The notes under the pieces were generated by a model that was given only the letters and a program-made list of their open reading frames with translations, searched no databases and had not been told where the DNA came from. Positions 4,252 to 51,900 of a stretch of DNA of 64,000 nucleotides are shown here, piece by piece. How positions within the stretch are numbered: the stretch's first letter is position 1; every line of letters starts with the position of its first letter. This DNA comes from an uncultured Desulfobacterales bacterium (GTDB taxonomy: Bacteria > Desulfobacterota > Desulfobacteria > Desulfobacterales > Desulfobacteraceae): assembly GCA_964565415.1 (NCBI GenBank), contig CAZMEX010000005.1:21442-85441 (forward strand). Reading direction: 5' to 3'. Position numbers and translations under genes: made by a program.

Positions 4252-4280
4252 TTGACTTTCTGTTTTTATTTGGTTAGGAA
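4252..4280 (+). promoter_or_regulatory. Candidate sigma70 promoter for riboswitch 1 (TTGACT-17 nt-TAGGAA)
   Basis: TTGACT at 4252-4257, 17-nt spacer, TAGGAA at 4275-4280. Same CTTGACTTT -35 context as the promoter at 12378. Confidence 0.4.
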
Positions 4281-4287
4281 AGTAATC

Positions 4288-4455
4288 TGATTCAGGTGCT
4301 TTTTTAAGGCACAATAGGGAACCCGGTTTAATTCCGGGACGGACCCGCCGCTGTTATTGGGTACGAAAACCTAAACAATGCCACTGTCAGAACAATCTGA
4401 TGGGAAGGCTTAGGTGAGTAGAATGATCCAAAAGTCAGAAGACCTGCCTGGATTA
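4288..4455 (+). promoter_or_regulatory. Cobalamin (B12) riboswitch 1
   Basis: Conserved core AATAGGGAACCCGGTTTAATTCCGGGACGGACCCGCCGCTGT, then GCCACTG...TGGGAAGGC, then B12-box AGTCAGAAGACCTGCC. P1 pairing TTCAGG/CCTGGA. Confidence 0.9.
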
Positions 4456-4517
4456 TATATAAGTTTTCCTTCTGGATAAAGGAATTCTTAAAAGATCTTG
4501 AGGAAAGAAAAGGGATA

Positions 4518-4589: not shown

Positions 4590-6704
4590 ATGGAAAAAAG
4601 ATTTGTTTTAATTTTATTGTCAGTTTTACTGGTTGTTTCTAATGGTTTTGCCTTGGATAATGAGCCAAAACCTTTTGAAATGGATGAGGTGGTTGTCACT
4701 TCCACCAACAAGGCTAAAGCCTTTGATACACCTTCCAGCATTGCTATTATTACAGCAAAAGATCTGGAGGATTCCGGAGCCAAAAATATTATAGAAGTTT
4801 TGGAAAACATTCCGGGTATTATTAATAAAACATATAACAATGAAGGTATTGCCATTCGGGGCACTCAAAGCTCCATGGCAGGTGGACCTGTTATACTTAT
4901 TGATGGTGTACCCCAAAAAATTGGAGACACGCAATATGACTCTTTTGGTTTTATTCCTGTCTCCCAGGTTGAACGCATTGAGGTATTAAAATCCCCGGGG
5001 ATAGTTTATGGACCTGGCTCTGCCAGGGGTGTTATTAATATTATTACTAAAAAAGGAGAAAAAGAAAACTTTAGTGGTAATATCAAACTTTCCTATGGAT
5101 CATGGGACACAATTGACACCAATGCCACCATATCCGGCAATAAACACAAATTTGATTATTTGATTAATGCAGGAATTTTTAAAACAGACGGGTATGAAGA
5201 TGAAGGAGTGAATAAAACCTCCTCTTTAATAAAGTTTGGATATAAGCCAAATGATTATACCCGCATTGGATTGAGGGGCAATTTAATTTTAAATGATGCC
5301 GAAGTTGCCAGGGGTCGTGAAAAAAACCGATGGCACATAAAGCATTTTCGAAGAAAGAAGCAGTTTCCCAGAAGCGCAACAGACCCGCGACTTGTATGGT
5401 ATAATAAAAAAGATCACACCGAATCAGTGCTGGGTCTTGAATTTTCCCACGATAAAGATGCTCTTTTTCTCAACTCCAATGTTTCTTATACAAAATATGA
5501 AGCAAATTATAAAAGTCAGTATTCCATTAACTACAAACCAAAAACCGTATTCCATGAGGATGAAAACCAGAGCACCTATGCTTTTAACTTTTCCGGTGGC
5601 TACAACTTAAGCCTTGACAACTTCATCTATACGCCCTCTTTTGGTGTTAATATGGAACAGATTAATTTTGACCAGCAGAGAAACTATCCCTTTAACCCCA
5701 AAAAGAAAACAGGTAAATATATTTTTGATGTAAATGAGACAATGTATGGTCTATTCTGGGATAACGATTTTTTATTTAAAGAGAAGTATGGTTTAAAAAT
5801 TGGTGCGAGGATTGATCAAGTAAATGTAGAATTTGAAGATAAAGCTGCAACTGAAATTGATCAATCAGAAACTTTTATTGGATGGTCAATTGCCCCCTCT
5901 TACTACTTCACTACAGATGCAAACATCTATTTCCAAATAAGTAAAAACTTCTGGATGCCAACACCTGCATATTATGCCTGGGCAGCATCCCGTGGGAAAA
6001 AAGGCGGTATCACCATAAACACTGCTGACAGCCTCAAGCCCGAAGAATCCCTAACATATGAAATTGGTTATAAACATATGGTTAATAAAAATATACGATT
6101 TATTCTGACAGGTTTCTTCATTGATTATAAGGACAAATTTGCAAGTGTCTACCATAGCAATGCAGCCATGACCTGGGGTGGAATGAAAAATATAGGCTCG
6201 GCTGAAATGAAAGGTATTGAACTTGAAGCCGATGGACGACCATGCAATTTTTTTGGTTATCGACTCTCTGGAACATATCTTGATGCCAAGTGGAAAAGCG
6301 GTCAAATGAAAGTCTATGAAAGACCTGGCAACACAAAAGTACTTTGCGACCTTGATGGGTATCAAATCTATGGAATCCCAAAGTATACAGCCACAGCGGG
6401 TTTTGATTTTTATCCCATGGAAAAATTAAAAATCTCAGCAGATATCAACTATTTTGGTCCCCATTATGCAGATTACACCAACAAGGTAAAATACAGTGCA
6501 AAGACAACCTTTGATACTAAAGTTACCTATACAATCAATAACAGCTGGGAGGTATGGCTGTTGGGAAAAAATATTTTTGATCAAAACATTGAAAGAGTAA
6601 GCAATACAACTGCTCGAATCAATACTGCCACCGGAGCATATGCCAACACCTATTATGTTCAGGATGGAGCATATTTTGAAGCTGGATTGAATTATAGTTT
6701 TTAA
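4590..6704 (+). CDS. TonB-dependent outer-membrane receptor
   Basis: Signal peptide, TonB-box-like DEVVVTS, plug motif IEVLKSPGIVYGPGSARGVINIITKKG, C-terminal LNYSF. 704 aa. Confidence 0.9.
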   Translation: MEKRFVLILLSVLLVVSNGFALDNEPKPFEMDEVVVTSTNKAKAFDTPSSIAIITAKDLEDSGAKNIIEVLENIPGIINKTYNNEGIAIRGTQSSMAGGPVILIDGVPQKIGDTQYDSFGFIPVSQVERIEVLKSPGIVYGPGSARGVINIITKKGEKENFSGNIKLSYGSWDTIDTNATISGNKHKFDYLINAGIFKTDGYEDEGVNKTSSLIKFGYKPNDYTRIGLRGNLILNDAEVARGREKNRWHIKHFRRKKQFPRSATDPRLVWYNKKDHTESVLGLEFSHDKDALFLNSNVSYTKYEANYKSQYSINYKPKTVFHEDENQSTYAFNFSGGYNLSLDNFIYTPSFGVNMEQINFDQQRNYPFNPKKKTGKYIFDVNETMYGLFWDNDFLFKEKYGLKIGARIDQVNVEFEDKAATEIDQSETFIGWSIAPSYYFTTDANIYFQISKNFWMPTPAYYAWAASRGKKGGITINTADSLKPEESLTYEIGYKHMVNKNIRFILTGFFIDYKDKFASVYHSNAAMTWGGMKNIGSAEMKGIELEADGRPCNFFGYRLSGTYLDAKWKSGQMKVYERPGNTKVLCDLDGYQIYGIPKYTATAGFDFYPMEKLKISADINYFGPHYADYTNKVKYSAKTTFDTKVTYTINNSWEVWLLGKNIFDQNIERVSNTTARINTATGAYANTYYVQDGAYFEAGLNYSF

Positions 6705-6715
6705 AGCTGAAAAAG

Positions 6716-7462
6716 ATGCTGAAACAACTTTGGATTACTGGAATTTTTACCGGCTTTTTGATTTTTGGAATCAAGGCAGGGCTTGGCTTAAGCAGCTATT
6801 TATATAATAGGTCTGGGGAAAAAACTCAAAAACTTATTTTTCTGTTTTTCTGTTTTTTTGTATATCTTGCTCTCTTTTTCATGCTTTATTATGTGATTAA
6901 TAGCTTTAGCCTGCTTGATTATCTGGATCAATTTCTAAATTTGTTGAAATATGGCATGCTTATACATATACTTATTGCTGTCGGGCTTTTTTTCTGGGGA
7001 GCAAAGCTTTTATTGCAGACCCAGAAGGGCCCGACAAAATATGCTTCAAAATATGCGCTTATTCTTCTGCTGCCATGTCCTGTATGTGCCACAGTTATCT
7101 TATTGAATCTAACCCTTGCTTTTTCCATTTTTTCATTTTCCCCTGCATTGGTTACTCTGGTTTTGTTTTCCATATTTTCAACCATTATCCTTGTCTCTCT
7201 GGGGCTTGTATTTCCTTTCCGCCATAAAATCCTGTCGGACAACTCCTTTTTAGGAGTATCCATGACTCTTGTTTCTCTCTATTTCCTTTTTACTATTATT
7301 ATTGCTCCAATATACCCTAAAATAAAAGCAAGCTATTTTATGGCTCTTTCAAATAACCCTTTTACCAATATAGATATGTTTCATACAATCCTTCTCCTTG
7401 TAGTTGTCGTGGTGTTAGCCGGATATGGATTTATTAAAATTTATTTTTTGCAAAGGCAGTGA
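6716..7462 (+). CDS. Polytopic membrane protein, DUF2162-like predicted transporter
   Basis: About 7 hydrophobic segments, with an intramembrane LLLPCPVCATVILL motif. The family assignment comes from remembered gene context (DUF2162 / MotA-ExbB / DUF2149 / CobN clusters). Confidence 0.55.
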   Translation: MLKQLWITGIFTGFLIFGIKAGLGLSSYLYNRSGEKTQKLIFLFFCFFVYLALFFMLYYVINSFSLLDYLDQFLNLLKYGMLIHILIAVGLFFWGAKLLLQTQKGPTKYASKYALILLLPCPVCATVILLNLTLAFSIFSFSPALVTLVLFSIFSTIILVSLGLVFPFRHKILSDNSFLGVSMTLVSLYFLFTIIIAPIYPKIKASYFMALSNNPFTNIDMFHTILLLVVVVVLAGYGFIKIYFLQRQ

Positions 7463-7466
7463 ACCA

Positions 7467-8096
7467 ATGAACATTTTTCCAATTTTTCAAACAATACTTT
7501 ATACCATCTCAACAGCTCTTCTTTATCCTGTTGTTCTTTTATTAATTGGACTCAGCATCTGGATTGTCATATATACAGGTGGGTTTATAGCAGAGTTTGT
7601 GCAACGTAAAAAATTTATCTCCACTGAAAACCTTGCAGATTCACTTGAACAAATCAGCAGCAAAATAGATCTTCCCCTATCAATAAGAAACTGCCTCCCT
7701 CGGCATATCATTGAATTTTCTGAAAATCTTAAGGTCATAATCAGTGCAAATAAATCCTTTAAAAATGAAAAAATTGAAAACCTTTTGCAACAGAGTGAAT
7801 CCTTTCTGGAAAAAGAGTTAAACAAAATAAAAATGATTGTGAGAGTCGGACCCAGTATTGGCCTTATGGGAACTTTGATCCCCATGGGTACAGGTCTGGC
7901 AGGATTAACCCAAGGAGATATGACACAACTTTCATCAAGCCTTATCCTTGCGTTTACCACCACAGTAGTGGGTATTGCCCTGGGAGTTACAGCATATTTT
8001 TTTTCCATGGTTAAGCAGACATGGCTTAATTGGGATTATAGGTGTCTTGCACTTATCACAGAAGCCATGACAAAAAACCCAATGACAAAAGAGTAA
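7467..8096 (+). CDS. MotA/TolQ/ExbB-family proton channel protein
   Basis: VGPSIGLMGTLIPMGTGLAGL and LAFTTTVVGIALGV match the ExbB/TolQ C-terminal channel motifs. I chose the ATG at 7467 (MNIFPIF), just after the upstream stop at 7462, instead of the overlapping 7425 start. Confidence 0.8.
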   Translation: MNIFPIFQTILYTISTALLYPVVLLLIGLSIWIVIYTGGFIAEFVQRKKFISTENLADSLEQISSKIDLPLSIRNCLPRHIIEFSENLKVIISANKSFKNEKIENLLQQSESFLEKELNKIKMIVRVGPSIGLMGTLIPMGTGLAGLTQGDMTQLSSSLILAFTTTVVGIALGVTAYFFSMVKQTWLNWDYRCLALITEAMTKNPMTKE

Positions 8097-8101
8097 ACTA
8101 T

Positions 8102-8461
8102 ATGAAATATCTTACAAGACAAAAACAATCCAAGTTGCAAAATGTTGCAATGGAAGATCCCATGAATGGAGTTGCCAATCTTTTTGATGTTGCTCTGGTG
8201 TTTATTGTAGCTCTGCTGCTATCGCTGATGTCTGCCTACCAGATCCTTGATTTTTTCAATCCTGAAAGCGAGATTACAATTATGAAAAAAACCGATGAAC
8301 AGTGGCGGATAATAACAAAAAAGGGCAGAAAGATAAAAGTAAAAAAGGTTACGAACCGCAAAGTTGGTGGGAAAGAAGGGCTTAAGCTTGGCACTGCTTA
8401 TCAGCTTCAAAACGGGCAGGTGATTTATATTCCGGAAGAGGAGATAAATGAGATTGAATAG
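8102..8461 (+). CDS. DUF2149-like, ExbD/TolR-like single-pass membrane protein
   Basis: The ATG at 8102 follows the ExbB-like stop. One N-terminal TM segment, NLFDVALVFIVALLLSLM, has an Asp at the helix start as in ExbD/TolR. About 70 aa of soluble tail. Confidence 0.5.
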   Translation: MKYLTRQKQSKLQNVAMEDPMNGVANLFDVALVFIVALLLSLMSAYQILDFFNPESEITIMKKTDEQWRIITKKGRKIKVKKVTNRKVGGKEGLKLGTAYQLQNGQVIYIPEEEINEIE

Positions 8462-11400
8462 ACTCTTTTCCATCTTTATTTTCTTCTTGGTTATATTTGC
8501 CCTGGAAATTCCATCACTATTGCAGGCAGGTATTCAGAAAAAAGAAGTTCTCATGATAATTGGTGCCGGAGACTCCCTCGGTGTTGCCAGGGTTTTTAAG
8601 GAGCTTAAAAAAAACAAACTATCAAAACAATATTCATTCACCTTTATTACAGACTATGAAGTGAGAAGTAATAAAGCTGATGGCAGCAAAATAGACAAAG
8701 CTGACATAATTATTGCTGATTTTATGAAAAGAGAGTTTGATGCATTTATTGCTGAAAACAATGTAAAACAGAATGCTGCCATATATAGCCTTCGCTGTGG
8801 CTATCTTGCTGAAAAAACTAAAAAAAAGGGGTTAAAGGTTAATATTGAGACAGAGCAATATTTTTCTCCTTCAACCCATGAAAACATTAAAAATCTACTT
8901 TTTCTAACCATTGCAAATTCTGGCTGCGACCTGGAGTATAAGAGACCATTCAAACTACCAGAAGCTGGAATTTTTCACCCTGAAGCTGAAACAGTTTTTT
9001 CATCCTTTGATACATATTTAAGCTGGTATAAAAAAAGGGTTGGTTTCAACAAGACAGGCTTCTGGGTCGGAGTTTCAACCTTTTCCACCTCTGCCAGCAG
9101 CTTGCAATATCCCAATGCAGGTAAGATTGAACAATTTTTGATCTTAGCCCTTGAAAAGCAAGGCATTAATATTTTACCAATATTTGGAAGACCTCCATAC
9201 CATGACTCATTAAAAAAATTTTTTTTAGATGACCACCAAAACCCAAGAATTGATGCTTTGGTTGGATTTTCTTTCCGTTTTTTACGCGGATTCCCGGTTA
9301 AAACAAGGCTTATTCTAAAAACAATAAATGCACCCATCTTTATGCCTTTGGAAGCCCATTCAATTACCATTAAACAGTGGAAAAAATCATGCACTGGAAT
9401 ATCTCCCATCAGAACTGCCTGGCAAGTATGTATTCCAGAACAGAATGGAGCAATTGAACCTACTATTGTTGGTGGTAAAGCTCCTGCAAGACTCAAAGGC
9501 ATGACCAGTATCATATATGAAAAACGCCCCCTTCCAGATAATATTGATTTTTTAATCAAAAGGATTAAAGCTTTTCATAAACTTAGAGTCACACCCAACA
9601 AAGATAAAAAAGTTGCTCTTTTTTATTGGAACCACCCTCCGGGCAAACAGGGTGTTGGTGCAAGTTATATGAACTGTTTCAGCTCCATTGCCCATATTCT
9701 GAAAAAATTAAAAGCCCAGGGATATATTGTTGATATCAATGACATCTCAAAGGATAAAATAAAAAAACGAATAATGCAGAGCGGACGAAATATCGGCTCC
9801 TGGGCACCAGGGGAGCTGCAAGGGCTGATGGCAAGCAAAGATGTTGTCCAGATTCCAGTCTCAAAATATAAAAAATGGTTTAAAGAGCTTCCCCCTAGCT
9901 TTCAAAAAGCTGTTGAGGAACAATGGGGCAAGGTTGAAGAGTCAAATATAATGATAAAATCTTCCAAAATTATTATTCCATTGGTAGATCTTGGCAATGT
10001 GATTCTTTTGCCCCAACCATCCAGGGGATTTGGTGAAGACCCTGCAAAACTGTACCACGATCCAAAGGTTTTCCCCCATCACCAATACATTGCCTTTTAC
10101 CTCTGGCTGAAAAAAGAATTTAATGTTAATGCAATAATATCCCTTGGCAAACATGGTACCCATGAGTGGCTGCCTGGCAAGCAGGTGGGCTTATCCCTCA
10201 ACTGCCCCCCTGAAATCTTAATTCAGGATATTCCCAATATTTACCCATATATTGTAGATAACATCGGTGAAGGTATCCAGGCAAAAAGGCGGGGGCGCGG
10301 CATAATTATTGACCATCTTATCCCACCTTTAAAAAAAGGCGGGATTTATATGGAATATAGAGAACTTACAGCGAAAATTGATTCCTATCATACTGCCCTT
10401 GTAACAAACCCCAAACTTGCAGATGAAAAATTGAAAACTGTCCGCACCCTTATTTTAAAACTTGGTATTGATAAAGATCTTGGTTTAAGTGTGATTGATC
10501 ATGAATCTGTTGAAGAGGTTGAACACTACATTCTGGAGTTGCAGGAAAGGTTGATCCCCTATGGTAATCACACGTTTGGTATCTCACCTGCAGGTGAGTC
10601 ACTTGTCCACCTCACCAATGCAGTTTGTGATAAAAGCCCAGAAATTGACAAAAAAGAGGTTAAAACAAAAATAGAGGTTTGCGGTGAAAAGGAAATCTTC
10701 TCCCTCATAAAAGCTTTAAATGGTGAATTTATTGCACCGGGTGAGGGTAATGACCCTGTGAGAAATCCCGATGCAATTCCCACGGGAAATAATTTTTATG
10801 GGTTTAATATTGATAAAGTTCCTTCCAGAGAGGCATTTGTCATGGGTAAAAACCTTGCTGAAAAAATGATTCAGGAGTACAAACAAAAACACAATCATTT
10901 TCCTGACAAACTTGGAATTATTCTCTGGAGCACAGAATTACAGCGCAATGAAGGTGCAGGTATTGCTGCAATATTTCATCTTATGGGAGTTGAACCAATT
11001 TGGGACAGAAAAGAGCAGGTAACAGGTGTAAAAGCTATTCCCGGTACCCTTCTTAACCGACCCAGAATTGATGTATTAATTCAAATGTCTGGTCTGTTTC
11101 GGGACAGTTATGCTAAATTAATTACACTTATGGATGAAGCTGTTAAAATAGCAGGTGCTTTAAAAGATGTTGAAAACTTTATTGCCATAAATAATAAAAA
11201 AATTGAAAGTACTCTTATCTCCAAAGGATATTCTAAAGAGAAAGCGCGCCAATTAAGCAAAGCAAGAATATTTGGACCAATGCCTGGTGCGTACTCCCAT
11301 GCTCTGCAGGAGTTAATTCCCAACAGTGCTGTATGGGAAACCCAAGATGAAATAGCAGATGTATTTATACACCACTCATCCTTTGCCTATGGAAAATCTT

Positions 11401-12371
11401 TCTGGGGCAGGCCTTTAAAGAGTGCATACAAGGAAAATCTAAAAGATGTGAAAATAACAATGCACACACGATCTTCCAATCTTTACTATATGCTGGATAA
11501 TGATGACATGTTTGCTTTTTTGGGAGGCTTGTCCCTTGCAGTAAAAAGTGTTGCCGGTAAACAGCCTGAAGCCATTGTTGCAAATATGCAGGATGGCAAA
11601 ACCGTAACATTGGATAGTTTATCTAAATCAATTGGTAAAGCAATGCGAAGCCGCTATCTTAACCCGGAATGGATTAAAGGAATGCAAAAAGAGGAATACT
11701 CTGGTGCAAAAGAGATGGATCAATTTGTTGAACATCTGTGGGGGTTTCAGGTAACAACTCCCTATGCAGTGGATAAAAGCCTCTGGCAGGAGATCCACGA
11801 TGTCTATGTAAAAGATAAATACAAACTTGATATGAAAAAATTTTTTGATGAAAATAACCCCTGGGCATTGCAATCAATCACAGCAAGAATGCTTGAGGCA
11901 GACCGGAAAAAATATTGGGATGCACCGGAAAAAATGAAAAAAAGCCTTGCGAAAACCTATGCACTCAGTATGATTGAAAAAGGGGTTGCCTGTTGTGAGC
12001 ACACCTGTAACAATCCCATGTTACAGCAATTTGTCACCAATATTATCTCCCTGTATGGACTAATGTCACAACAACAATTGGAACTGTTTAAAATGACTCT
12101 AGCCCAGGCAACATCAATGAGCCAAAAGGAGAGTGAAGCCAAAATAAAAAAAATGCAGGAGGGTTTAACAAAAACAATTAAAGAGATAAAAAAAGATGAA
12201 GAGATAAATACAAAAACCAAAGGCAAGGCAATAGAAGGTTTTGAGTTGGTCGATGAAAAGCAGAATGAGACAAAAGTTACTTCATCAGGTTCCTCCTGGG
12301 TAATCATACTAATTATTTGTGCTGTCCTTATGCTTTTAGTTGCTGGCTGGAAACAAAAAATAACAGCCTGA
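8448..12371 (+). CDS. cobN: CobN/ChlH-family (class I chelatase large subunit) homologue with N-terminal signal peptide and C-terminal TM anchor
   Basis: CobN motifs HGTHEWLPGK, IPNIYPYIVDNIGEGIQAKRRG, DHLIPP, NPDAIPTGNNFYGFN, PRIDVLIQMSGLFRD. N-terminus MRLNRLFSIFIFFLVIFALEIPSLLQAG. C-terminus SSWVIILIICAVLMLLVAGWKQK. Confidence 0.88.
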   Translation: MRLNRLFSIFIFFLVIFALEIPSLLQAGIQKKEVLMIIGAGDSLGVARVFKELKKNKLSKQYSFTFITDYEVRSNKADGSKIDKADIIIADFMKREFDAFIAENNVKQNAAIYSLRCGYLAEKTKKKGLKVNIETEQYFSPSTHENIKNLLFLTIANSGCDLEYKRPFKLPEAGIFHPEAETVFSSFDTYLSWYKKRVGFNKTGFWVGVSTFSTSASSLQYPNAGKIEQFLILALEKQGINILPIFGRPPYHDSLKKFFLDDHQNPRIDALVGFSFRFLRGFPVKTRLILKTINAPIFMPLEAHSITIKQWKKSCTGISPIRTAWQVCIPEQNGAIEPTIVGGKAPARLKGMTSIIYEKRPLPDNIDFLIKRIKAFHKLRVTPNKDKKVALFYWNHPPGKQGVGASYMNCFSSIAHILKKLKAQGYIVDINDISKDKIKKRIMQSGRNIGSWAPGELQGLMASKDVVQIPVSKYKKWFKELPPSFQKAVEEQWGKVEESNIMIKSSKIIIPLVDLGNVILLPQPSRGFGEDPAKLYHDPKVFPHHQYIAFYLWLKKEFNVNAIISLGKHGTHEWLPGKQVGLSLNCPPEILIQDIPNIYPYIVDNIGEGIQAKRRGRGIIIDHLIPPLKKGGIYMEYRELTAKIDSYHTALVTNPKLADEKLKTVRTLILKLGIDKDLGLSVIDHESVEEVEHYILELQERLIPYGNHTFGISPAGESLVHLTNAVCDKSPEIDKKEVKTKIEVCGEKEIFSLIKALNGEFIAPGEGNDPVRNPDAIPTGNNFYGFNIDKVPSREAFVMGKNLAEKMIQEYKQKHNHFPDKLGIILWSTELQRNEGAGIAAIFHLMGVEPIWDRKEQVTGVKAIPGTLLNRPRIDVLIQMSGLFRDSYAKLITLMDEAVKIAGALKDVENFIAINNKKIESTLISKGYSKEKARQLSKARIFGPMPGAYSHALQELIPNSAVWETQDEIADVFIHHSSFAYGKSFWGRPLKSAYKENLKDVKITMHTRSSNLYYMLDNDDMFAFLGGLSLAVKSVAGKQPEAIVANMQDGKTVTLDSLSKSIGKAMRSRYLNPEWIKGMQKEEYSGAKEMDQFVEHLWGFQVTTPYAVDKSLWQEIHDVYVKDKYKLDMKKFFDENNPWALQSITARMLEADRKKYWDAPEKMKKSLAKTYALSMIEKGVACCEHTCNNPMLQQFVTNIISLYGLMSQQQLELFKMTLAQATSMSQKESEAKIKKMQEGLTKTIKEIKKDEEINTKTKGKAIEGFELVDEKQNETKVTSSGSSWVIILIICAVLMLLVAGWKQKITA

Positions 12372-12377
12372 TATTGC

Positions 12378-12406
12378 TTGACTTTTTGCTTTTGTTTTTA
12401 TAGATT
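12378..12406 (+). promoter_or_regulatory. Candidate sigma70 promoter for riboswitch 2 (TTGACT-17 nt-TAGATT)
   Basis: TTGACT at 12378-12383, 17-nt spacer, TAGATT at 12401-12406, immediately upstream of the aptamer. Confidence 0.45.
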
Positions 12407-12407
12407 G

Positions 12408-12578
12408 AAAGTTCAGGTGTTGCATTGAGCAGATAATAGGGAATCTCGTTAAAATCGAGAGCGGACCCGCCGCTGTAATCGGGGATGAAAACTTTAACAA
12501 TCACTGCAAAGTTAATAAAAGACTTGTGGGAAGATAAAGTAATAATTTGATCCGTAAGCCAGAAAACCTGCCTGAAAA
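12408..12578 (+). promoter_or_regulatory. Cobalamin (B12) riboswitch 2
   Basis: AATAGGGAATCTCGTTAAAATCGAGAGCGGACCCGCCGCTGTAATC, then TCACTG...TGGGAAGAT, then B12-box AAGCCAGAAAACCTGCC. P1 pairing TTCAGG/CCTGAA. Confidence 0.9.
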
Positions 12579-12637
12579 TAATTTCAGTAAGCTGACGAGG
12601 AAATAAGCTAGGGCTAAAAATATGGAAAAATACGGTT

Positions 12638-12669
12638 CCCATATCGACCATATCGATATGGGTTTTTTT
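12638..12669 (+). terminator. Rho-independent terminator (riboswitch 2 expression platform)
   Basis: Stem CCCATATCGA, loop CCATA, stem TCGATATGGG, then TTTTTTT. It lies upstream of the cbiK start at 12712. Confidence 0.75.
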
Positions 12670-12711: not shown

Positions 12712-13680
12712 ATGATCAGAAAACGTAATTTTTATTTTATTTTAGTACTATCTTTTTTATTGGTGGCATCCAGCAACTTATTTGCAAAAAGTGCTATAAT
12801 TTTGTCAAGTTTTGGCACAACAGAGCCGAAAGCTGTCTCTTCAATCTTGAATATTAAAGCCGAGATTGAAAAGGCTTTTCCTGGAACCAGAGTTGAACTG
12901 ACCTTTACTTCAAATATTATCAGATCAATCTGGCAAAAGAGAAGGCAAAATGCTGCTAAATGGAAAGCAATGGGAATTGCTCCTGAAGTCCTTAATATCA
13001 AAGGAATCCTCGAAACTTTTGGAAAACTTCAAAGTGCAGGATTCAAAGATATAGTGGTGCAACCGACTCATATGTTTCACATGGAACAATACTCTGATCT
13101 GGTATCATATGTTGATGGTATTGCATCCATTAAAACCATAAGAAAAAAGTGGATGCCCTTTAATAACATTGTTATTGGCAGACCTGCCCTGGGGACATGT
13201 GGTGTAAAATATCCATACCATGATGATATGAAAAGAGTTGTTAAAATTTTCCATGCCGATGCTAAAGAAGCAGAGGAGGAAAAGTCAATTCTCGTATATA
13301 TGGGGCATGGAAATGAGGTGTGGTCCACCGGGATTTATGCAGAGCTGCAAAAAGAGATGAGGAAAGTTTATCCTGATATAATAACATTTATTGGAAGTGT
13401 TGAAGGGTACCCTTCCCTTGATGATATCAAAGCAGGGTTAAAACACATGCACCTGAAACAGAAAAATATTCTATTAAAACCTCTAATGATTGTTGCAGGC
13501 GACCATGCAAGAAATGATATGGCAGGAGATGGGGAAGATTCCTGGAAAACAAACTTTGAAAAAATTGGTTTTAAGGTTAATCCTGTATTAAAAGGGTTGG
13601 GATCCAATAATGAGTTTGTGCAAATATTCATTGACCACATTAAAGATGCTGCCCAGGAGGGTGGAATAAAATTAAAATAA
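12712..13680 (+). CDS. cbiK: Sirohydrochlorin cobaltochelatase CbiK with signal peptide (periplasmic CbiK(P)-like)
   Basis: SFGTT, YMGHG and PLMIVAGDHARNDMAGDGEDSWK closely match the CbiK signature. N-terminus MIRKRNFYFILVLSFLLVASSNLFAKSA looks like a Sec signal. Confidence 0.85.
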   Translation: MIRKRNFYFILVLSFLLVASSNLFAKSAIILSSFGTTEPKAVSSILNIKAEIEKAFPGTRVELTFTSNIIRSIWQKRRQNAAKWKAMGIAPEVLNIKGILETFGKLQSAGFKDIVVQPTHMFHMEQYSDLVSYVDGIASIKTIRKKWMPFNNIVIGRPALGTCGVKYPYHDDMKRVVKIFHADAKEAEEEKSILVYMGHGNEVWSTGIYAELQKEMRKVYPDIITFIGSVEGYPSLDDIKAGLKHMHLKQKNILLKPLMIVAGDHARNDMAGDGEDSWKTNFEKIGFKVNPVLKGLGSNNEFVQIFIDHIKDAAQEGGIKLK

Positions 13681-13692: not shown

Positions 13693-14742
13693 TTGAATAG
13701 TAAAATTAAAGCCATAACAAAAAGGAGAACAGGGACTCTGGTGACTCTGTTCTCCTTTTTATTAACAGGGACAATATTATTATCATGTTCAATGGGATAT
13801 GTTAATATTGACTTTAGTGATATCTGTAAAATCATATACTCAGCCATCACTAACAATGCAGACATTGTATCTGATATCCCAAAAACCATCAGGGTGATTG
13901 TTATGGAGATACGGTTACCCCGTATTCTTACCTGTGCTGCTGTTGGTGGAGCGCTTGCCGTATCAGGTGCATTGTTTCAAGGTATTCTTTTAAATCCCCT
14001 TGCTGATCCTTATACTTTGGGAGTTTCTGCCGGGGCAGCTTTTGGTGCATGTATTGCGATTTTATTTAACCTCGGGGCTTTTTTTGTTTCAATTCCTTTA
14101 TTTGCTTTTATCGGAGCAATTAGTACACTGTTTCTTGTAATTTTTCTTTCCAGCGGATCCAACAAAAGCAGCTCTAACTTCTCCTCTAATAACCTTATTT
14201 TATCAGGCATTATTATTGCCGCAATTTTATCTGCCGGCATTAGTTTTTTAAAGTACCTTGCCGATGAACAGGTGTCGGTTATTATTTTCTGGCTCATGGG
14301 CAGTTTTGCTTCAAAAACCTGGATTGACGTTTTTGCAGTTTTAAGCTTTTTAATGATGGGTTTTTTAATATCAATTTTATATGCAAGGGATCTTAACCTC
14401 ATATCTCTTGGAGAAAAAGCAGCCTCCAGTCTTGGGGTTGATATTAAAAAGGTTGTCATAACCCTTCTTATTACAGGTTCTCTGCTTGCTGCAATCTCAG
14501 TTTCTGTCTCTGGCATAATTGGTTTTGTAGGGCTTCTTATTCCCCATATGGTAAGATCCATTACAGGTCCTGACAACTTAAAAGTTATCCCGCTTTCCAT
14601 GATTGCAGGAGCAGCTCTTCTTCTTGTTGCCGACACAATAACAAGGGCTGTCCTTGTTCATGAAATCCCCATTGGTGTTTTAACAGCGCTGATTGGCGGT
14701 CCTGTTTTTTGCTGGATATTTAAAAAAAGTAACCAAAAGTAA
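13693..14742 (+). CDS. FecCD/BtuC-family ABC transporter permease
   Basis: About 9-10 TM segments. Motifs LADPYTLGVSAGAAFGA and ALIGGPVF. TTG start. Confidence 0.85.
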   Translation: MNSKIKAITKRRTGTLVTLFSFLLTGTILLSCSMGYVNIDFSDICKIIYSAITNNADIVSDIPKTIRVIVMEIRLPRILTCAAVGGALAVSGALFQGILLNPLADPYTLGVSAGAAFGACIAILFNLGAFFVSIPLFAFIGAISTLFLVIFLSSGSNKSSSNFSSNNLILSGIIIAAILSAGISFLKYLADEQVSVIIFWLMGSFASKTWIDVFAVLSFLMMGFLISILYARDLNLISLGEKAASSLGVDIKKVVITLLITGSLLAAISVSVSGIIGFVGLLIPHMVRSITGPDNLKVIPLSMIAGAALLLVADTITRAVLVHEIPIGVLTALIGGPVFCWIFKKSNQK

Positions 14743-14751
14743 GGAACAGAT

Positions 14752-15543
14752 ATGAGAATCAAAGTTGAAAATCTTTCATTTGCCCATGATCTCAGCATCA
14801 CAATGCCAGGCAATACCATCAATAATTTCAATATTGAATTTGAACAAGGCAACTTCTACTCTTTACTTGGTCCCAACGGCAGTGGGAAAACAACCTTTCT
14901 TGATCTTTTAACTGGATATTTAAAGCCAGATTCTGGAAATGTTTTGTTTAATGATAACAATATTATCTCTTTTTCTAAAAATCAGCTTTCCAGAAAAATA
15001 GCCCTTGTTTCCCAGGAATACTCCATAAACTTTCCATATACTGTAAAAGAAATTGTTACCATGGGAAGACATCCTTACATGGGACGATTTCTTTCCCTGG
15101 ATAAAAAAGATAAAGATATAGTCAAACATATTGCTTCCATTACAGATATCAATGATTTAATGGAAAGGACTATTACCTGCCTAAGTGGAGGGGAAAAGCA
15201 ACGCTGTGTTTTTGCAAGAGCTTTATGCCAGCAAACCCCTGTACTTCTTTTAGATGAAGCTTTTTCCAATATGGATATTAACCACTCATTTAATTTGTTG
15301 AAGATTTTAAAAAATATGATTAGAGACAATAAAATTATAGTAATTTCAGTTTTCCATGATATAAATTTTGCATCCATATGGTCAGATAAAATGATTTTTT
15401 TAAAAAAAGGAGATATAATGGCATATGGAACGCCTAACGATGTAATGACCGAAGCAAATATAAAAAAAGTGTATGATATTAAAGCAAAAGTTGAACACAA
15501 TGCTTTTGCAAAGGCAAAACAAGTATATTTTAGTACAAATTAA
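14752..15543 (+). CDS. ABC transporter ATP-binding protein (BtuD/FecE-like)
   Basis: Walker A GPNGSGKTT, signature LSGGEKQR, Walker B LLLDEAFS. Confidence 0.9.
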   Translation: MRIKVENLSFAHDLSITMPGNTINNFNIEFEQGNFYSLLGPNGSGKTTFLDLLTGYLKPDSGNVLFNDNNIISFSKNQLSRKIALVSQEYSINFPYTVKEIVTMGRHPYMGRFLSLDKKDKDIVKHIASITDINDLMERTITCLSGGEKQRCVFARALCQQTPVLLLDEAFSNMDINHSFNLLKILKNMIRDNKIIVISVFHDINFASIWSDKMIFLKKGDIMAYGTPNDVMTEANIKKVYDIKAKVEHNAFAKAKQVYFSTN

Positions 15544-15554
15544 AATAAAATCAC

Positions 15555-16490
15555 ATGAATAATCTCATAAAGCATTTTAAAGTCTTAGTATGGCTGCTGA
15601 TATTTTCTCTTTTCAGCAGTGTATCTGTATTTGCCCATACAATTGTTGATAATGCAGGAAGAAAGGTTACATTTTCAAAACCTTTTCAAAAAATTATCTC
15701 TTTATATGGCGCACATACTGAAAACCTGTTTTATCTTGGAGCCGGAAGCCAGGTTATCGGTGTATCAGTCAATGATACATACCCAGCTTGTGTAAAAGAG
15801 AAAAAAAGCTTTTCCTTTCATGATGATGCAGAAAAATTTCTATCGGCTGCTCCAGACCTTATTATAATCCGCCCAATGATTGACAAAGGATATACAAAAT
15901 TATTCACTGCCCTTGAAAAATTTGGAATTGTTGTGGTATCACTTCAGCCGGCAAACCCTGAACAAATGTACAGTTATTGGTTAAAACTTGGTTTACTGAC
16001 AGGCAAAAACAGACAAGCTCAAAACATGGTAAAAGAGTTTCAGGATCAAATTAGTTTCTTAGGCTTGCTTACCTGCAATGTTAAAAACAAGAAGAGGGTC
16101 TATTTTGAAGCGATCCATTCAAGAATGAAAACTTTTACCCAAAGGTCCATGCCGGGATTTGTTTTAAAAACCGCTGGCGGTATTAACATTGCAGTAGATG
16201 CAAAAGCTTCACGAAATACAAACATAGCACATTATGGTAAGGAAAAATTATTATCCCATGCATCTGAGATTGATATTTTCCTTGCACAACAAGGAGTAAT
16301 GAATAGTATAACTAAAGCAGTTATTAAAAACGAACCCGGGTTTGAAACCATCAAGGCAATTGCCAACAATAAAGTGTATTTAATAGATGAGCAGATAATT
16401 TCAAGACCGGGATTCAGGCTTTTACAAGGAATAAAAACAATTGGTAAACTATTATATCCAAATATATATAATAACAATATAATTAATTAG
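15555..16490 (+). CDS. Periplasmic substrate-binding protein (BtuF/FecB class)
   Basis: Signal peptide. Size and position after the permease/ATPase genes fit. PDLIIIRP and KVYLIDE motifs are typical of class III binding proteins. Confidence 0.75.
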   Translation: MNNLIKHFKVLVWLLIFSLFSSVSVFAHTIVDNAGRKVTFSKPFQKIISLYGAHTENLFYLGAGSQVIGVSVNDTYPACVKEKKSFSFHDDAEKFLSAAPDLIIIRPMIDKGYTKLFTALEKFGIVVVSLQPANPEQMYSYWLKLGLLTGKNRQAQNMVKEFQDQISFLGLLTCNVKNKKRVYFEAIHSRMKTFTQRSMPGFVLKTAGGINIAVDAKASRNTNIAHYGKEKLLSHASEIDIFLAQQGVMNSITKAVIKNEPGFETIKAIANNKVYLIDEQIISRPGFRLLQGIKTIGKLLYPNIYNNNIIN

Positions 16491-16518: not shown

Positions 16519-17226
16519 ATGAAAAAAAGCGGGAAACTGTTCGGAATTGGTGTTGGACCGGGTGATCCTGAACTTATCACGAAAAAAGCAATCAGAATTA
16601 TTAATGAGGCAGATGTGATTTTTACTGCAGCCTCCACAAAAAACAATTACAGCCTTGCCCTTGAAATTGCCGACCCGTATATTTCAGATAATGCTGACAT
16701 CCAAAATCTATCTTTTCCCATGATAAAGGACAAGCTGAAAAGTGCAAAAGCATGGAACTCCAATGCTGAAAAAATTTCTGCTGTTTTAAAGCAGGGCAAA
16801 AATGCAGCATTTATAACTCTTGGTGACCCTGTAACATACTCAACTTTTGGCTATATTTTAATGGCAATGGAAAAAGTGATGCCCAACGCTGACATTGAAA
16901 TTGTTCCTGGTATTACATCTTTTCATGCTGCCGCTGCAAGATGCAATCAAATACTGGTGGAGGCAGAAGAGACACTTGCCATAGCATCAGGTGCCTATGG
17001 AGGCAGCCACATCAGAGATATTGCTGAAAAAGTTGATAAAATTGCAATTGTTAAAGCATATAAGAATACAAAAGATTTAATAAAAGCTTTAAAAGAGACT
17101 GGATTTTATGAAAAGAGCGTTGCTGTATCAAAATGCGGAAGAGAAGGCGAAAACATCATTCAAGACATAGATGATCTTGAAACAAGGGAACCTGATTACT
17201 GGACATTGATTCTTGCAAGCAAATAA
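16519..17226 (+). CDS. cbiL: Cobalt-factor II / precorrin-2 C20-methyltransferase
   Basis: GKLFGIGVGPGDPELIT tetrapyrrole methylase N-terminus. 235 aa. cbi operon context. Confidence 0.85.
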   Translation: MKKSGKLFGIGVGPGDPELITKKAIRIINEADVIFTAASTKNNYSLALEIADPYISDNADIQNLSFPMIKDKLKSAKAWNSNAEKISAVLKQGKNAAFITLGDPVTYSTFGYILMAMEKVMPNADIEIVPGITSFHAAAARCNQILVEAEETLAIASGAYGGSHIRDIAEKVDKIAIVKAYKNTKDLIKALKETGFYEKSVAVSKCGREGENIIQDIDDLETREPDYWTLILASK

Positions 17227-17385
17227 CACTGAAACATTACCATGCAGATGTTTTACCATTTCAATATTTATAGCAACATTGATTACGGTTTTGCTTATGC
17301 AAGGAGCGAAGATTTCCGTAGGAAGGTCAATGTTTCAAGATCTTAAGTTAATAATAGTTGGATTAATCTATTTTATGGTGGCTGA

Positions 17386-18624
17386 ATGAAACCTGTAAAA
17401 ATTATTGGTATGGGACAAGCTTTACACGATATTACACCGGAACAAATGAAGATAATTAAAGATGCTGATTTACTGATCGGAGGCACAAAGCTGCTTGTAA
17501 ATTTTGATAATCTTAATGTACAAAAGATAGAAATTAAGAATAATTTGGCCTTAATTGTTAAAACAATTCAAGCTAAGATAGATTCAAACAAAATTGTGGT
17601 GCTGGCATCGGGAGACCCCCTCTTTTTCGGTATCGGGACATATCTTATAAAAAAAATCGGTAAAGAAAATGTTAGGATTTATCCAAATATTTCATCTGCT
17701 GCCAAAGCTTTTTCTAAAATAAATGAGTCATGGCATGATGCTAAACTTATCAGCCTCCATGGAAAAAGGTCAAAAAAATTTGATAACCTTACGGACCTTT
17801 TTGCAGATAAAACTAAGTTTGGGATATTAACTGATAAGAAAAAAGATCCTGTGTGGATTGCAAAAAAAATCGTTGCTAATAATATGACGGATTTTTCAAT
17901 GTGTGTATTGGAGGAGCTCGACACTAACAATGAAAAAATCCGATGGTTCCATGACCTTTCAAAAGTTGCAGAAAATCAATTTGCCCATCCAAATATTGTA
18001 ATTTTAAAAAGAGACCACTCTTCCACTGATTCCGCCAAAAACAGACAAATTTTCCCGGGAATGGCAGATGGATATTTCCTCCATGAAAAGGGACTTATTA
18101 CTAAAGCTGAAATTAGAAGTATTGCTATATCTAAGCTTAATTTTGTCAATGAAGATCATCTGTTCTGGGACCTTGGTTCAGGCTCCGGTTCCATTTCCAT
18201 AGAGGTTTCATCTATTCTCACCAAAGGTAAGATTTATGCAGTTGAAAAGAATCTTGATAGAATAAGTTTGATTAAAAAAAACATTCTCAAGTATAATGTT
18301 AAAAACATTAATGTGATCCATGCAAACCTCCCGGACAATTTTGATAAATTGCCTGTTCCAGATCGAATATTTATTGGAGGCGGGGGCAAAGACCTTGCTG
18401 AGATTACAGAGTGTGCTGTAGATAAACTTGCCTTAAACGGTGTTATTGTTGTAAACACAATTTTAATTCAAAACCTTGAGCCTGTTTTTAAAATACTGAA
18501 AAAGCAAAGGTTAAACCCCCAGGCAATTTCAGTACAAATCTCAAAATCTAAAGACATGCCCTTTGGCACAAGATTTGAAGCACTAAACCCTGTATGGATT
18601 ATTTATGGAAAAAAGGAATACTAA
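17386..18624 (+). CDS. cbiET: Fused CbiE-CbiT cobalt-precorrin-6B/7 methyltransferase-decarboxylase (CobL-type)
   Basis: N-terminal tetrapyrrole methylase domain (IGMGQ..., ASGDPLFFG). C-terminal class I SAM methyltransferase domain (WDLGSGSGSISIE). Confidence 0.85.
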   Translation: MKPVKIIGMGQALHDITPEQMKIIKDADLLIGGTKLLVNFDNLNVQKIEIKNNLALIVKTIQAKIDSNKIVVLASGDPLFFGIGTYLIKKIGKENVRIYPNISSAAKAFSKINESWHDAKLISLHGKRSKKFDNLTDLFADKTKFGILTDKKKDPVWIAKKIVANNMTDFSMCVLEELDTNNEKIRWFHDLSKVAENQFAHPNIVILKRDHSSTDSAKNRQIFPGMADGYFLHEKGLITKAEIRSIAISKLNFVNEDHLFWDLGSGSGSISIEVSSILTKGKIYAVEKNLDRISLIKKNILKYNVKNINVIHANLPDNFDKLPVPDRIFIGGGGKDLAEITECAVDKLALNGVIVVNTILIQNLEPVFKILKKQRLNPQAISVQISKSKDMPFGTRFEALNPVWIIYGKKEY

Positions 18625-18627
18625 CAA

Positions 18628-19410
18628 ATGCAAAGCAAATTTTATCCGGTATTATTTGTAGGTGCGGGTCCTGGGGACCCTGATCTCATAACTGTTAAAG
18701 GAATGAATGCACTAAAAGAGGCAGATATAATTATCTATGCCGGCTCTCTTGTTCCAAAAGAACTTCTTTCATGGGCAAAACCTGAAACCAAAACAATAAA
18801 TAGTGCTTCAATGCACTTAAATGAAATTATTGAAGAGATCAAATCTTCCTATTTTGCCCAAAAAAAAGTTGTAAGGCTTCATACTGGAGACCCTTCCCTT
18901 TACGGAGCAATTTTAGAGCAGTTTAGAGAGTTAAATAGAGACTCTATTAAATTTAAAACAATTCCCGGAGTTACTGCAGCGTTTGCTGCAGCTGCATCCA
19001 TGAATATGGAGTATACCCTGCCTGAAGTTACCCAGACATTAATCTTAACCAGAATCTCTGGCAGGACATCTGTCCCTGATTTAGAGGACTTAAACCTATT
19101 GTGCTCCCATAAAAGTTCCATTGTTATCTATTTGAGTATCAAGCATATTGAAAAAGTTGAAGAAATTGTGTGTAAGTCCTTTGGCGAAAAGAGCTTATGT
19201 GCAATAGCATATAAAGTTGGTTTTAAAGAGGAAAAAATTATATATTGTGAGGCAAACAATCTTACTGAGTCAGTAAAAAAAGAAAAAATTGCCAGCCAGG
19301 CAATAATCATTGCAGGCAAAGCAGTAGAGGCAAGTATGGCAGACAAAGATATACTCAAGTCAAAACTTTATGATATAAATTTCAGCCATGAATACAGAGA
19401 GAATAGATAA
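18628..19410 (+). CDS. cbiF: Cobalt-precorrin-4 C11-methyltransferase
   Basis: FVGAGPGDPDLITVKG, RLHTGDPSLYGA and IPGVTAAFAAAA motifs. Confidence 0.9.
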   Translation: MQSKFYPVLFVGAGPGDPDLITVKGMNALKEADIIIYAGSLVPKELLSWAKPETKTINSASMHLNEIIEEIKSSYFAQKKVVRLHTGDPSLYGAILEQFRELNRDSIKFKTIPGVTAAFAAAASMNMEYTLPEVTQTLILTRISGRTSVPDLEDLNLLCSHKSSIVIYLSIKHIEKVEEIVCKSFGEKSLCAIAYKVGFKEEKIIYCEANNLTESVKKEKIASQAIIIAGKAVEASMADKDILKSKLYDINFSHEYRENR

Positions 19411-20458
19411 AAGAGTAGCAATCTGGACAATCACCAAATCAGGTTACAAACATGGTGTTAACCTTGCCAGAAACATTGATGATTCAATACTTTTTATTTC
19501 CAAAAACCTTTCTGGAAAATTAAATGGCCTAGAAAAACTGCACAGCAGCTTTTCTAAAAACCCTTTGGTTTTTTCAAAATTATCAAACCATGTAAAAAGT
19601 GTTTTTAATGATTTTGATGGTCATATTTTTGTGTTTTCCACAGGTATTGCAGTCAGGACAATAGCACCACTTATTAAATCTAAGATTGAAGATCCTGCTG
19701 TTGTAGTGCTTGATGATAAAGCTATCCATGCCATCAGTTTGTTGTCAGGACACATTGGCGGAGCAAATGAACTTACAAAAAAAGTTTGCTCCATTACACA
19801 AGCAAACCCTGTGATTACAACTGCGACTGATATTCATAATAAGCCTGCCATTGACATCCTGGCAATTGAAAATAATATGTACATTGCAAATCCTGGCATG
19901 ATAAAAAAAATAAACATGGCAATTCTTGAGAATAAAAACATTAAAATCCATGATCCCAATAATATTCTGGCCCCTAAATTGCCCAACAGCATAAGCACCA
20001 GAGAAAACCCTGATATAATATGTACTGACAAAACAGTTGATGTTCCACGTGGAACTCTTCTATTGAATCCACCATCTCTAATTGTTGGCATGGGATGCAA
20101 CAGAGGAACATCCCTGGAGGAGATTGAAAAATTTCTGATTTCAACCTTAGATAAGAACAACTTAACCATTAAAAGTATCTGGGCATTTGCCTCAATAGAT
20201 GCAAAAGCTGATGAAGCAGGTTTTCTTAAACTATCAAAGAAACTTGGTATTCGGTTTCTCTTTATTGACAAACAGAGGCTTGCATCAACAAACAATATTA
20301 AGAATCCATCAAAAATAGTTGAAAAATATATGGGAGTAAAAAGCGTATGCGAAGCAGCAGCACTAACAGCGGGAAACCAGGCAAAACTGATAGTTCAAAA
20401 ACAGATAAGCGGCAACGTAACAATTGCCATTGCAAGACAGAACCTGTCCTCTATGTAG
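19388..20458 (+). CDS. cbiG: Cobalt-precorrin-5A hydrolase
   Basis: CbiG N, middle and C domain pattern (VAIWTITKSG..., IVGMGCNRGTS..., VCEAAAL). 356 aa. Confidence 0.85.
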   Translation: MNTERIDKRVAIWTITKSGYKHGVNLARNIDDSILFISKNLSGKLNGLEKLHSSFSKNPLVFSKLSNHVKSVFNDFDGHIFVFSTGIAVRTIAPLIKSKIEDPAVVVLDDKAIHAISLLSGHIGGANELTKKVCSITQANPVITTATDIHNKPAIDILAIENNMYIANPGMIKKINMAILENKNIKIHDPNNILAPKLPNSISTRENPDIICTDKTVDVPRGTLLLNPPSLIVGMGCNRGTSLEEIEKFLISTLDKNNLTIKSIWAFASIDAKADEAGFLKLSKKLGIRFLFIDKQRLASTNNIKNPSKIVEKYMGVKSVCEAAALTAGNQAKLIVQKQISGNVTIAIARQNLSSM

Positions 20459-21291: not shown

Positions 21292-21315
21292 AGATTAATA
21301 AGTTAACAAGAGAAG

Positions 21316-27270: not shown

Positions 27271-27314
27271 TGAATCTTACCTTTTTGCTTTTTAATTGTG
27301 TATTTTATAACTAT

Positions 27315-28715: not shown

Positions 28716-28736
28716 AATTGCCTCCTGAACAGCTTC

Positions 28737-51068: not shown

Positions 51069-51082
51069 AAACGGAGAAAAAA

Positions 51083-51889: not shown

Positions 51890-51900
51890 GTATTTAAGCC

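Follow-up and report, generated by a model that had tools for sequence, protein, structure and literature searches.

The stretch of DNA analysed here, called the window throughout, comprises 64,000 nucleotides (nt) from an uncultured Desulfobacterales bacterium and carries at 8448..12371 on its + strand a gene for a 1307-residue homologue of the class I chelatases (Pfam PF02514, CobN-Mg_chel, 1031 bits). All coordinates refer to this window. Its sequence assigns the CobN-like protein, as one of BtuS type, to the HmuS-like branch within the CobN/ChlH superfamily. Export and a membrane tether at its C-terminus are predicted, which would place about 1250 residues of chelatase fold in the periplasm. 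With a probability of about one half, it would act there as an ATP-independent (de)chelatase of cobalt tetrapyrroles, most likely corrinoids, in the salvage of cobalt and B12, a role whose substrate and direction we infer from sequence and from analogy with known systems. Relatives were sought in a species-level genome collection with one genome per species; at least 563 were confirmed, and 80 related loci were retained for analysis.

Predicted export and membrane tethering of the CobN-like protein

Signal peptides and transmembrane (TM) helices were called by crude rules. The N-terminus of the CobN-like protein (MRLNRLFSIFIFFLVIFALEIPSLLQAG) displays a basic n-region, a 14-residue hydrophobic core and the small-residue site LQA|G, giving a predicted Sec signal peptide of residues 1-28 (8448..8531, +). 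The sole further hydrophobic window in the protein is residues 1281-1300 (GSSWVIILIICAVLMLLVAG), after which the chain ends in WKQKITA; the predicted C-terminal TM helix and its basic tail WKQK are encoded at 12288..12362 (+). Among 111 full-length CobN-like homologues of 39-75% identity, a signal-peptide-like N-terminus was found in 95 and the C-terminal helix with basic tail in 108, and none contained an internal TM-like segment. The conservation of these topology features across homologues argues that they are not due to chance. Ahead of the helix lies a charged tether (12132..12287, +) with a juxtamembrane motif, IEGFE..EK...T..SSGS, that is conserved in homologues. The motifs kept by sequence in tether and helix are IEGFEMVEEK, SSGSxW and the Gly ahead of the basic tail, and in a 28-sequence alignment of CobN-like proteins (A1) W1284 was at least 90% conserved and G1300 was invariant. 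NCBIfam models of sorting signals (PEP-, GlyGly-, PGF-CTERM and similar) did not match the tail.

The open reading frame (ORF) of the preceding DUF2149 gene ends at 8461 and overlaps the CobN-like gene by 14 nt, an overlap that recurs in 10 related loci. The sequence-only reading, made before the present analysis, had pointed to this overlap, to the signal-peptide-like N-terminus and to a single C-terminal hydrophobic helix followed by KQK; all three were recovered here and found to recur in homologues or related loci. The exported, membrane-tethered topology that it had predicted is, as a prediction, borne out by conserved sequence features, and the tight coupling of the CobN-like gene to the upstream ExbB-like and DUF2149 genes holds.

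The ATG at 8448 is preceded, 4-5 nt on its 5′ side, by GGAG as a Shine-Dalgarno sequence. A public gene call on identical DNA (L081:4485-8303, equal to window 8553-12371) starts at Met36, by which the signal peptide is lost; we favour the start at 8448 because the N-terminal peptide is conserved in homologues. If Met36 were the true start, the gene might encode an ordinary cytoplasmic CobN with its CobS and CobT elsewhere in the genome, which beyond the 64 kb lies outside the search. Besides this gene call, the name 'cobaltochelatase subunit CobN' given to homologues in public databases is in line with such a protein. Such exported proteins are routinely named CobN because of Met36-type gene calls and of the NCBIfam model NF004645 ('cobaltochelatase subunit CobN'), which reaches over the membrane tail. 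All NCBIfam CobN models, however, scored below their cut-offs (best 912 bits against a cut-off of 1619). A cytoplasmic CobN is further at odds with the conserved N-terminal peptide and C-terminal helix, with the Shine-Dalgarno sequence ahead of 8448, with a C-terminal extension of HmuS type, with the anaerobic early-insertion pathway genes cbiD, cbiG and cbiK in the window and with the lack of an AAA+ partner near any of the 80 loci, and we consider it very improbable.

A fold nearest to HmuS and a metal site of CobN type

Among solved structures, the best sequence match to the CobN-like protein was HmuS (514 bits), followed by CobN (462 and 417) and ChlH (393). An AlphaFold model of residues 29-1228 (pLDDT 85.9, pTM 0.85) superposed best on HmuS 9d26 (TM 0.85, root-mean-square deviation 4.5), then on CobN (TM 0.74) and ChlH (TM 0.68). 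The model has the six-domain head-neck-body fold, which together with the PF02514 domain places the protein in the CobN/ChlH superfamily.

Alignment identified the active-site motif ISLGKHGTHEWLPGK (10137..10181, +), in which H569 is the equivalent of HmuS His-538 and CobN H554, and the motif LYYMLDNDDMFAFLGG (11481..11528, +), in which D1019 is the equivalent of CobN D1100. A third residue, E608 (GEGIQAKRR), aligns with CobN E593, the Glu that equals ChlH E660. H554, E593 and D1100 are the Co2+ ligands of Brucella CobN (bioRxiv 10.64898/2026.07.21.739949). Their counterparts H569, E608 and D1019 were invariant in the 28-sequence alignment as well as in an alignment of 73 sequences, and the LDSDD motif reads LDNDD here. 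The domain-V motif is LDNDDMFAFLGG in the CobN-like protein, LDSDDYYQFEGG in CobN and LSLDHVYEFMGG in HmuS; by this comparison the second His of HmuS, His-1209, and its partner Glu-1212 are replaced here by D1020 and A1023. Of 86 clade ORFs scanned, 76 had a matched motif and none of these had a His at the HmuS-1209 position. In the core region the scores against CobN (137 and 123 bits) exceeded the one against HmuS (95 bits). The metal site, with a D-x-D-D of CobN type, by sequence follows CobN, whereas the overall fold is nearest to HmuS. 'GKHG' was tried as a CobN signature and dropped, and only EWLPGK and D-x-D-D were used as CobN-type motifs, because the K/T position of motif 1 varies within the clade.

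The Met-rich insertion in domain IV by which HmuS is defined (residues 780-898 in B. thetaiotaomicron) is absent: residues 714-740 of the CobN-like protein span HmuS 685-925, and the 25 intervening residues at the insertion position contain no Met. The N-terminal 315 residues, the neck region, align to ChlH only and not to HmuS. In this region H177 did not vary in either alignment of CobN-like proteins, and M93 did not vary among the 28 sequences and was at least 90% conserved among the 73. The site-1 heme ligands of HmuS, Met-79 and His-254 (HGR motif), lie at the head-neck interface, and M93 and H177 are no more than possible counterparts of them.

Past the ends of CobN and ChlH the protein continues in a C-terminal extension held in common with HmuS, C1182 and C1187 included. 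To these two the clade adds Cys1183 and His1185, so that a CC[DE]HxC motif is formed, of which HmuS has only the outer cysteines. In the window protein it reads GVACCEHTCNNP (11982..12017, +), and CC[DE]HxCNNP was present in 83 of 86 clade ORFs. This Cys/His motif could form an extra metal or redox site.

The operon, its cobalamin riboswitches and the neighbouring genes

A cobalamin riboswitch (riboswitch 1; 4277..4465, +; Rfam RF00174, 119.4 bits with a gathering score of 31.5) forms the leader of five + strand genes that are separated by gaps of at most 11 nt or overlap. The first, in the position of HmuR or BtuB, encodes a TonB-dependent outer-membrane receptor (4590..6704, +) with a signal peptide and Pfam Plug and TonB_dep_Rec_b-barrel matches. 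It is followed by a DUF2162 polytopic inner-membrane protein, HmuT-like (6716..7462, +; PF09930, 130 bits), a MotA/TolQ/ExbB-family proton-channel protein, HmuU-like (7467..8096, +; PF01618, 43.8 bits), a DUF2149 single-pass membrane protein, HmuV-like (8102..8461, +; PF09919, 102 bits), and the CobN-like protein. The ExbB-like ORF is open from 7425, and the start at 7467 agrees with a public gene call on identical DNA. Riboswitch 1 lies directly 5′ of the receptor gene, and no ORF was found in the position of the hemophore gene hmuY, with which the operon of the HmuS family comprises six genes. Control by an adenosylcobalamin riboswitch implies that the CobN-like protein is made when B12 is scarce.

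Riboswitch 2 (12398..12589, +; RF00174, 109.3 bits) starts 27 nt past the stop codon of the CobN-like gene. It is followed by a terminator-like hairpin (12638-12662; 10 bp, then a T-run), which was the only signal above background level in a promoter and terminator scan. The cbi operon behind riboswitch 2 is headed by a CbiK-type class II chelatase (12712..13680, +; PF06180, 244 bits) of the CbiK-P/FetB kind. Its N-terminus is clearly a signal peptide (…SSNLFA|K), and among solved proteins it is most closely related to FetB (9b86) and to the periplasmic D. vulgaris CbiK (2xvx). A cytoplasmic CbiK or CbiX was not visible in the 64 kb, though genes of the anaerobic pathway are present. Next come the genes of a BtuCDF-like ATP-binding cassette importer, identified by family matches as a FecCD permease, an ATPase and a Peripla_BP_2 binding protein (13693..16490, +), and the anaerobic cobalamin genes cbiL, cbiET, cbiF, cbiG, cbiH, cobO and cobQ (16519..23297, +); cbiD, cbiA and cbiC are located on the minus strand (26173-29330). 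The nearest solved receptors to the window receptor are YncD and PqqU, not BtuB, and the Peripla_BP_2 protein, which has a signal peptide, has PDB relatives that bind iron complexes, B12 or heme; the PDB similarity of receptor and binding protein is not diagnostic of the substrate. The two flanking riboswitches, the Hmu-like operon as a whole, the exported CbiK and the cbi cluster did not figure in the sequence-only reading.

Within the window no gene of ChlI, ChlD, CobS or CobT type was found, the genome beyond the window not being covered, and the sole AAA+-related matches were Lon and an unrelated AAA_14/DUF4143 protein. Nor was a ChlI/ChlD/CobS/CobT-like cluster found among 483 otherwise unlabelled neighbour ORFs from the 80 related loci, which clustered into further receptors, canonical ExbB, ExbD and TonB, and cbi genes. 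That the gene has no AAA+ partner, as had been supposed, holds locally in the window and in these neighbourhoods.

Elsewhere in the window, the stretch 47992-53289 displays 43% G+C compared to about 36% in the remainder and encodes a TetR regulator, an MMPL/RND-like transporter, a LolA-like protein and a DUF1302 protein. It may be a horizontally acquired island.

Related loci in sulfate reducers and other anaerobes

The related loci came mostly from Desulfobacterales, Desulfatiglandales and Desulfomonilaceae; other labels were Omnitrophota, Poribacteria, Verrucomicrobiota, Synergistaceae and Planctomycetes. Neighbours were counted for 49 full-length CobN-like genes with adequate flanks, on the same strand and within 9 kb. 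The trio of DUF2162, ExbB-like and DUF2149 genes was present in 47 of the 49, the TonB-dependent receptor in 43, an upstream cobalamin-riboswitch element in 42, a fusion of about 670 residues joining Peripla_BP_2 and CbiZ domains (BtuF-CbiZ) in 25, and CbiK in 22. Riboswitch elements in the relatives were detected by nhmmer from seeds verified with Rfam, and 7 further RF00174 matches were verified. Two or three riboswitch aptamers, in tandem or close series, were observed 5′ of some related operons (L001:5394-5999; L002:1992-2489; L012:3152-5754; L068:1071-1567).

The fusions consist of a BtuF-like binding domain and CbiZ, an adenosylcobinamide amidohydrolase (for example L065:15915-17942, L002:7995-10001 and L001:19954-21975), and their genes often overlap the adjoining CobN-like genes. 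The CbiZ domain acts only on corrinoids. All 36 fusions displayed a signal-peptide-like N-terminus, and by implication the trimming of corrinoids takes place in the periplasm.

In L083/L084:7863-18248 the operon order is receptor, DUF2162, ExbB-like, DUF2149, CobN-like, CbiK, ExbB, ExbD and TonB, and clusters of the canonical ExbB-ExbD-TonB set were present in 5-9 of the related loci. Since some operons thus encode the canonical set as well, the trio does more than merely energise the receptor. Contigs labelled as a Thermoplasmata archaeon (L082, QMTM01000095.1) and as Anaerolineae (the contig of P0261) were considered as cases of hosts that lack an outer membrane and were rejected, because both carry a TonB-dependent receptor together with the same operon; they are probably mis-binned Desulfobacterota-like DNA.

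Relation to HmuS, BtuS, CobN and the class II chelatases

HmuS of the Bacteroidota is a membrane-bound, NADH-dependent and ATP-independent enzyme converting heme into protoporphyrin IX and Fe(II), for which a cryo-electron microscopy structure exists (Nath et al. 2025, PMC12583661), and P. gingivalis HmuS was shown in an E. coli model to reside in the inner membrane facing the periplasm (PMC13227078). The hmuR-T-U-V-S operon encodes a TonB-dependent receptor, DUF2162/HmuT, MotA-ExbB/HmuU, DUF2149/HmuV and HmuS (PMC12583661, PMC12094164). The sequence-only reading had seen a paradox in a periplasmic CobN homologue where there is no ATP; this was already answered, because HmuS is extracytoplasmic and ATP-independent (PMC12583661, PMC13227078).

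The window protein resembles HmuS of B. thetaiotaomicron and P. gingivalis (9d26/9p4s) in its six-domain fold, the lack of an AAA+ partner, the receptor, DUF2162, ExbB-like and DUF2149 partners, the His-538 equivalent and a C-terminal extension with C-x4-C. As for HmuS, its termini suggest membrane anchoring and a periplasmic side, although in this prediction the window N-terminus looks cleavable and not like an anchor. It differs from HmuS in the absence of the Met-rich insertion, in the change of His-1209 and Glu-1212 to Asp and Ala as in CobN, and in the extra Cys and His of CC[DE]HxC. Further, its operon is under a cobalamin riboswitch and HmuS under iron or heme control, the identity is only about 25%, and the host belongs to the Desulfobacterota and not to the Bacteroidota.

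A plain HmuS orthologue, working in iron acquisition as a periplasmic heme dechelatase with Fe(II) and protoporphyrin IX as its products, would account for HmuS being the best solved match by overall sequence and fold, for the same partner genes and for the conserved His-538. The nearest relatives of the neighbouring CbiK bind heme, and BtuS1 and BtuS2 of B. fragilis contribute to heme-iron use (PMC6460266), both of which are in keeping with this function. It does not account for the cobalamin riboswitch, here and in 42 of 49 relatives, nor for the CbiZ and cbi gene context; hmuY and the Met-rich insertion are missing, and His-1209 and Glu-1212 of the HmuS motif LSLDHxxEFMGG have given way to Asp and Ala, with His in 0 of 76 matched clade ORFs. 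On balance a heme dechelatase is unlikely.

B12-regulated CobN-like genes were named BtuS by Rodionov et al. 2003, as cited in PMC6460266, and BtuS1 and BtuS2 of B. fragilis are predicted to be exported and attached to the membrane on its periplasmic side (Rocha et al., PMC6460266). Hmu-like operons without HmuY and with a cobalamin riboswitch were noted in 2023, with cobalamin and not heme suggested as the substrate (Meslé et al., PMC10100974). The window protein is like the BtuS family in being CobN-like yet distinct from CobN and ChlH, regulated by a B12 element, located beside B12-type uptake genes and predicted to be exported and membrane-anchored. RF00174 lies upstream, receptor and BtuCDF-like genes are present and the linkage is conserved in related loci. 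The family itself was defined by comparative genomics alone, and the Bacteroides members tested gave heme-iron phenotypes.

With CobN, the catalytic subunit of the aerobic cobaltochelatase CobNST (7c6o, 9uk9), the window protein shares the fold, the Co2+-binding His/Glu/Asp, the EWLPGK and LD(S/N)DD motifs and a B12 context. In contrast to the cytoplasmic CobN, the window protein has the predicted features of export and tethering, about 150 extra C-terminal residues and no CobS or CobT nearby; and whereas CobN belongs to the aerobic late-insertion pathway, the window carries the anaerobic cbiD, cbiG and cbiK.

Class II chelatases of about 300 residues, such as CbiK and FetB, constitute a different superfamily from the CobN-like protein and bear on the neighbouring gene. 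The window CbiK is like the periplasmic D. vulgaris CbiK and P. gingivalis FetB in being an exported class II chelatase, and it lies in a B12-riboswitch operon with btuCDF-like genes. Cobalamin-riboswitch control of cbiK-cbiL and btuCDF is known from Desulfovibrio species (PMC545781), and FetB, an exported CbiK homologue, inserts Co and Mn outside the cytoplasm (PMC13065792). Periplasmic CbiK and FetB are examples showing that a tetrapyrrole chelatase can do its work beyond the cytoplasm and needs no ATP there.

The inner-membrane trio

The DUF2149 protein has one TM helix with the invariant ANLFD..LVFIVAL (ANLFDVALVF in the window protein) and an invariant Asp, which recalls the ExbD/TolR helix. 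The resemblance to ExbD lacked statistical support: a profile search gave no match in the PDB, the hhalign probability was 0.8%, and homology is not claimed. DUF2162 contains an intramembrane PCPxC (7073-7087, +), of which, among 55 homologues, P120, C121 and P122 were invariant and C124 was at least 90% conserved. Features comparable to this Pro-Cys-Pro-x-Cys are the CPx motifs in metal pumps and the paired cysteines in DsbD/CcdA. The structure model of DUF2162 has 8 helices (pLDDT 78) and gave no significant fold match in the PDB (best E 0.3, TM 0.36), and relaxed Pfam and NCBIfam scans gave nothing further. By its CPxC motif alone, DUF2162 could be a metal transporter. The operon of the CobN-like gene encodes an ExbB-family channel protein and no TonB gene was found in it. 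It is possible that the upstream genes encode motor components coupled to the chelatase.

Domain VI is the 'handle' that CobT grips in the CobSTN complex. In a forward periplasmic cobalt chelatase, a proton-driven ExbB-like/DUF2149/DUF2162 module might replace the AAA+ motor by acting on domain VI through the tether and helix. Consistent with this, the trio accompanies the CobN-like gene even more regularly than the receptor does (in 47 and 43 of 49 cases, respectively), the 14-nt overlap recurs, the canonical ExbB-ExbD-TonB of some operons makes the trio dispensable for the receptor, the tail motifs are conserved in sequence beyond mere hydrophobicity, and the metal site is of CobN type. We know of direct evidence neither for a contact between trio and chelatase nor for a periplasmic source of metal-free tetrapyrrole, and the homology of DUF2149 to ExbD is unsupported. 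Forward chelation outside the cytoplasm has a precedent in FetB (PMC13065792), but HmuS is active in vitro even when the trio is absent (PMC12583661). We therefore hold a proton-driven forward chelatase to be rather unlikely.

Put more broadly, in a class I chelatase moved to the periplasm the AAA+ motor may have been swapped for a proton-motive-force module of ExbB-like, DUF2149 and DUF2162 proteins acting on the C-terminal tether, with cobalt being pulled from or pushed into corrinoids and leaving via CC[DE]HxC and the CPxC of DUF2162. This is a speculative proposal to which we attach a low likelihood. If true, both the demetalation of a corrinoid by an enzyme and a (de)chelatase driven by the proton-motive force would be firsts.

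A putative role in cobalt and B12 salvage

The role we favour, that of an ATP-independent periplasmic (de)chelatase of cobalt tetrapyrroles, may be depicted as follows: At low B12 the riboswitch-linked operon would be expressed, and a cobalt tetrapyrrole, most likely a corrinoid, would enter the periplasm through the TonB-dependent receptor. Many relatives would first trim the corrinoid by means of an exported BtuF-CbiZ fusion. The CobN-like protein would bind the cobalt tetrapyrrole in its central cleft at His569, Glu608 and Asp1019, and cobalt or the corrinoid would be removed or handed on without ATP, in the way that HmuS removes iron from heme. The inner-membrane trio might assist, either as a conduit for metal or electrons by the CPxC of DUF2162 or as a proton-driven helper.

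Several points weigh against this proposal. Cobalt is very tightly bound in corrins, and we know of no enzymatic corrinoid demetalation and of no biochemical datum for any riboswitch-linked member. An organism with BtuCDF and late cbi genes could import cobyric acid, which would be cheaper for the cell. With a receptor unlike BtuB, what is imported could be a cobalt complex and not a corrinoid. The H/E/D triad is superfamily-wide and therefore does not suffice to determine the metal, and in motif 1 members of the clade have either K or T. The absence of cobS, cobT, chlI and chlD covers the 64-kb window and not the whole genome. Mutants of B. fragilis in BtuS1 and BtuS2 had a heme-iron phenotype and not a B12 phenotype (PMC6460266).

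A handing-on of the ligand without any catalysis would make the protein a periplasmic chaperone or adaptor for corrinoids or cobalt between the receptor and the inner-membrane transporters. Operon 1 encodes no soluble binding protein, the size of the CobN-like protein and its tether could bridge the periplasm, a likeness to binding proteins is described for the head and neck domains (PMC12583661), and a chaperone or transfer role was proposed for P. gingivalis HmuS (PMC13227078). The invariance of the catalytic H/E/D triad and of cleft residues across phyla speaks for catalysis, and many of the loci already encode BtuF-type binding proteins; a non-catalytic chaperone is accordingly doubtful.

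Implications for cobalt supply and for the BtuS/HmuS-like proteins

An extracytoplasmic, ATP-independent CobN homologue is already known, and the sequence-only reading was wrong to treat the topology and the missing motor as unprecedented. What is added here is a BtuS/HmuS-like protein from outside the Bacteroidota, with a metal site of CobN type and under B12 control. With at least 563 relatives, BtuS/HmuS-like proteins that are linked to riboswitches occur widely among sulfate reducers and further anaerobes, and they are labelled 'cobaltochelatase CobN' in public databases, though none is characterised. They constitute a natural comparison set for HmuS, with which they share scaffold and partners but not the metal site, and the comparison could reveal the residues that set metal and substrate specificity as well as the role of the HmuTUV module. 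If the processing of corrinoids or cobalt in the periplasm is true, it would explain the purpose of the exported CbiK and of the exported BtuF-CbiZ fusions, and also how B12 producers are supplied with cobalt in sulfidic, cobalt-poor habitats.

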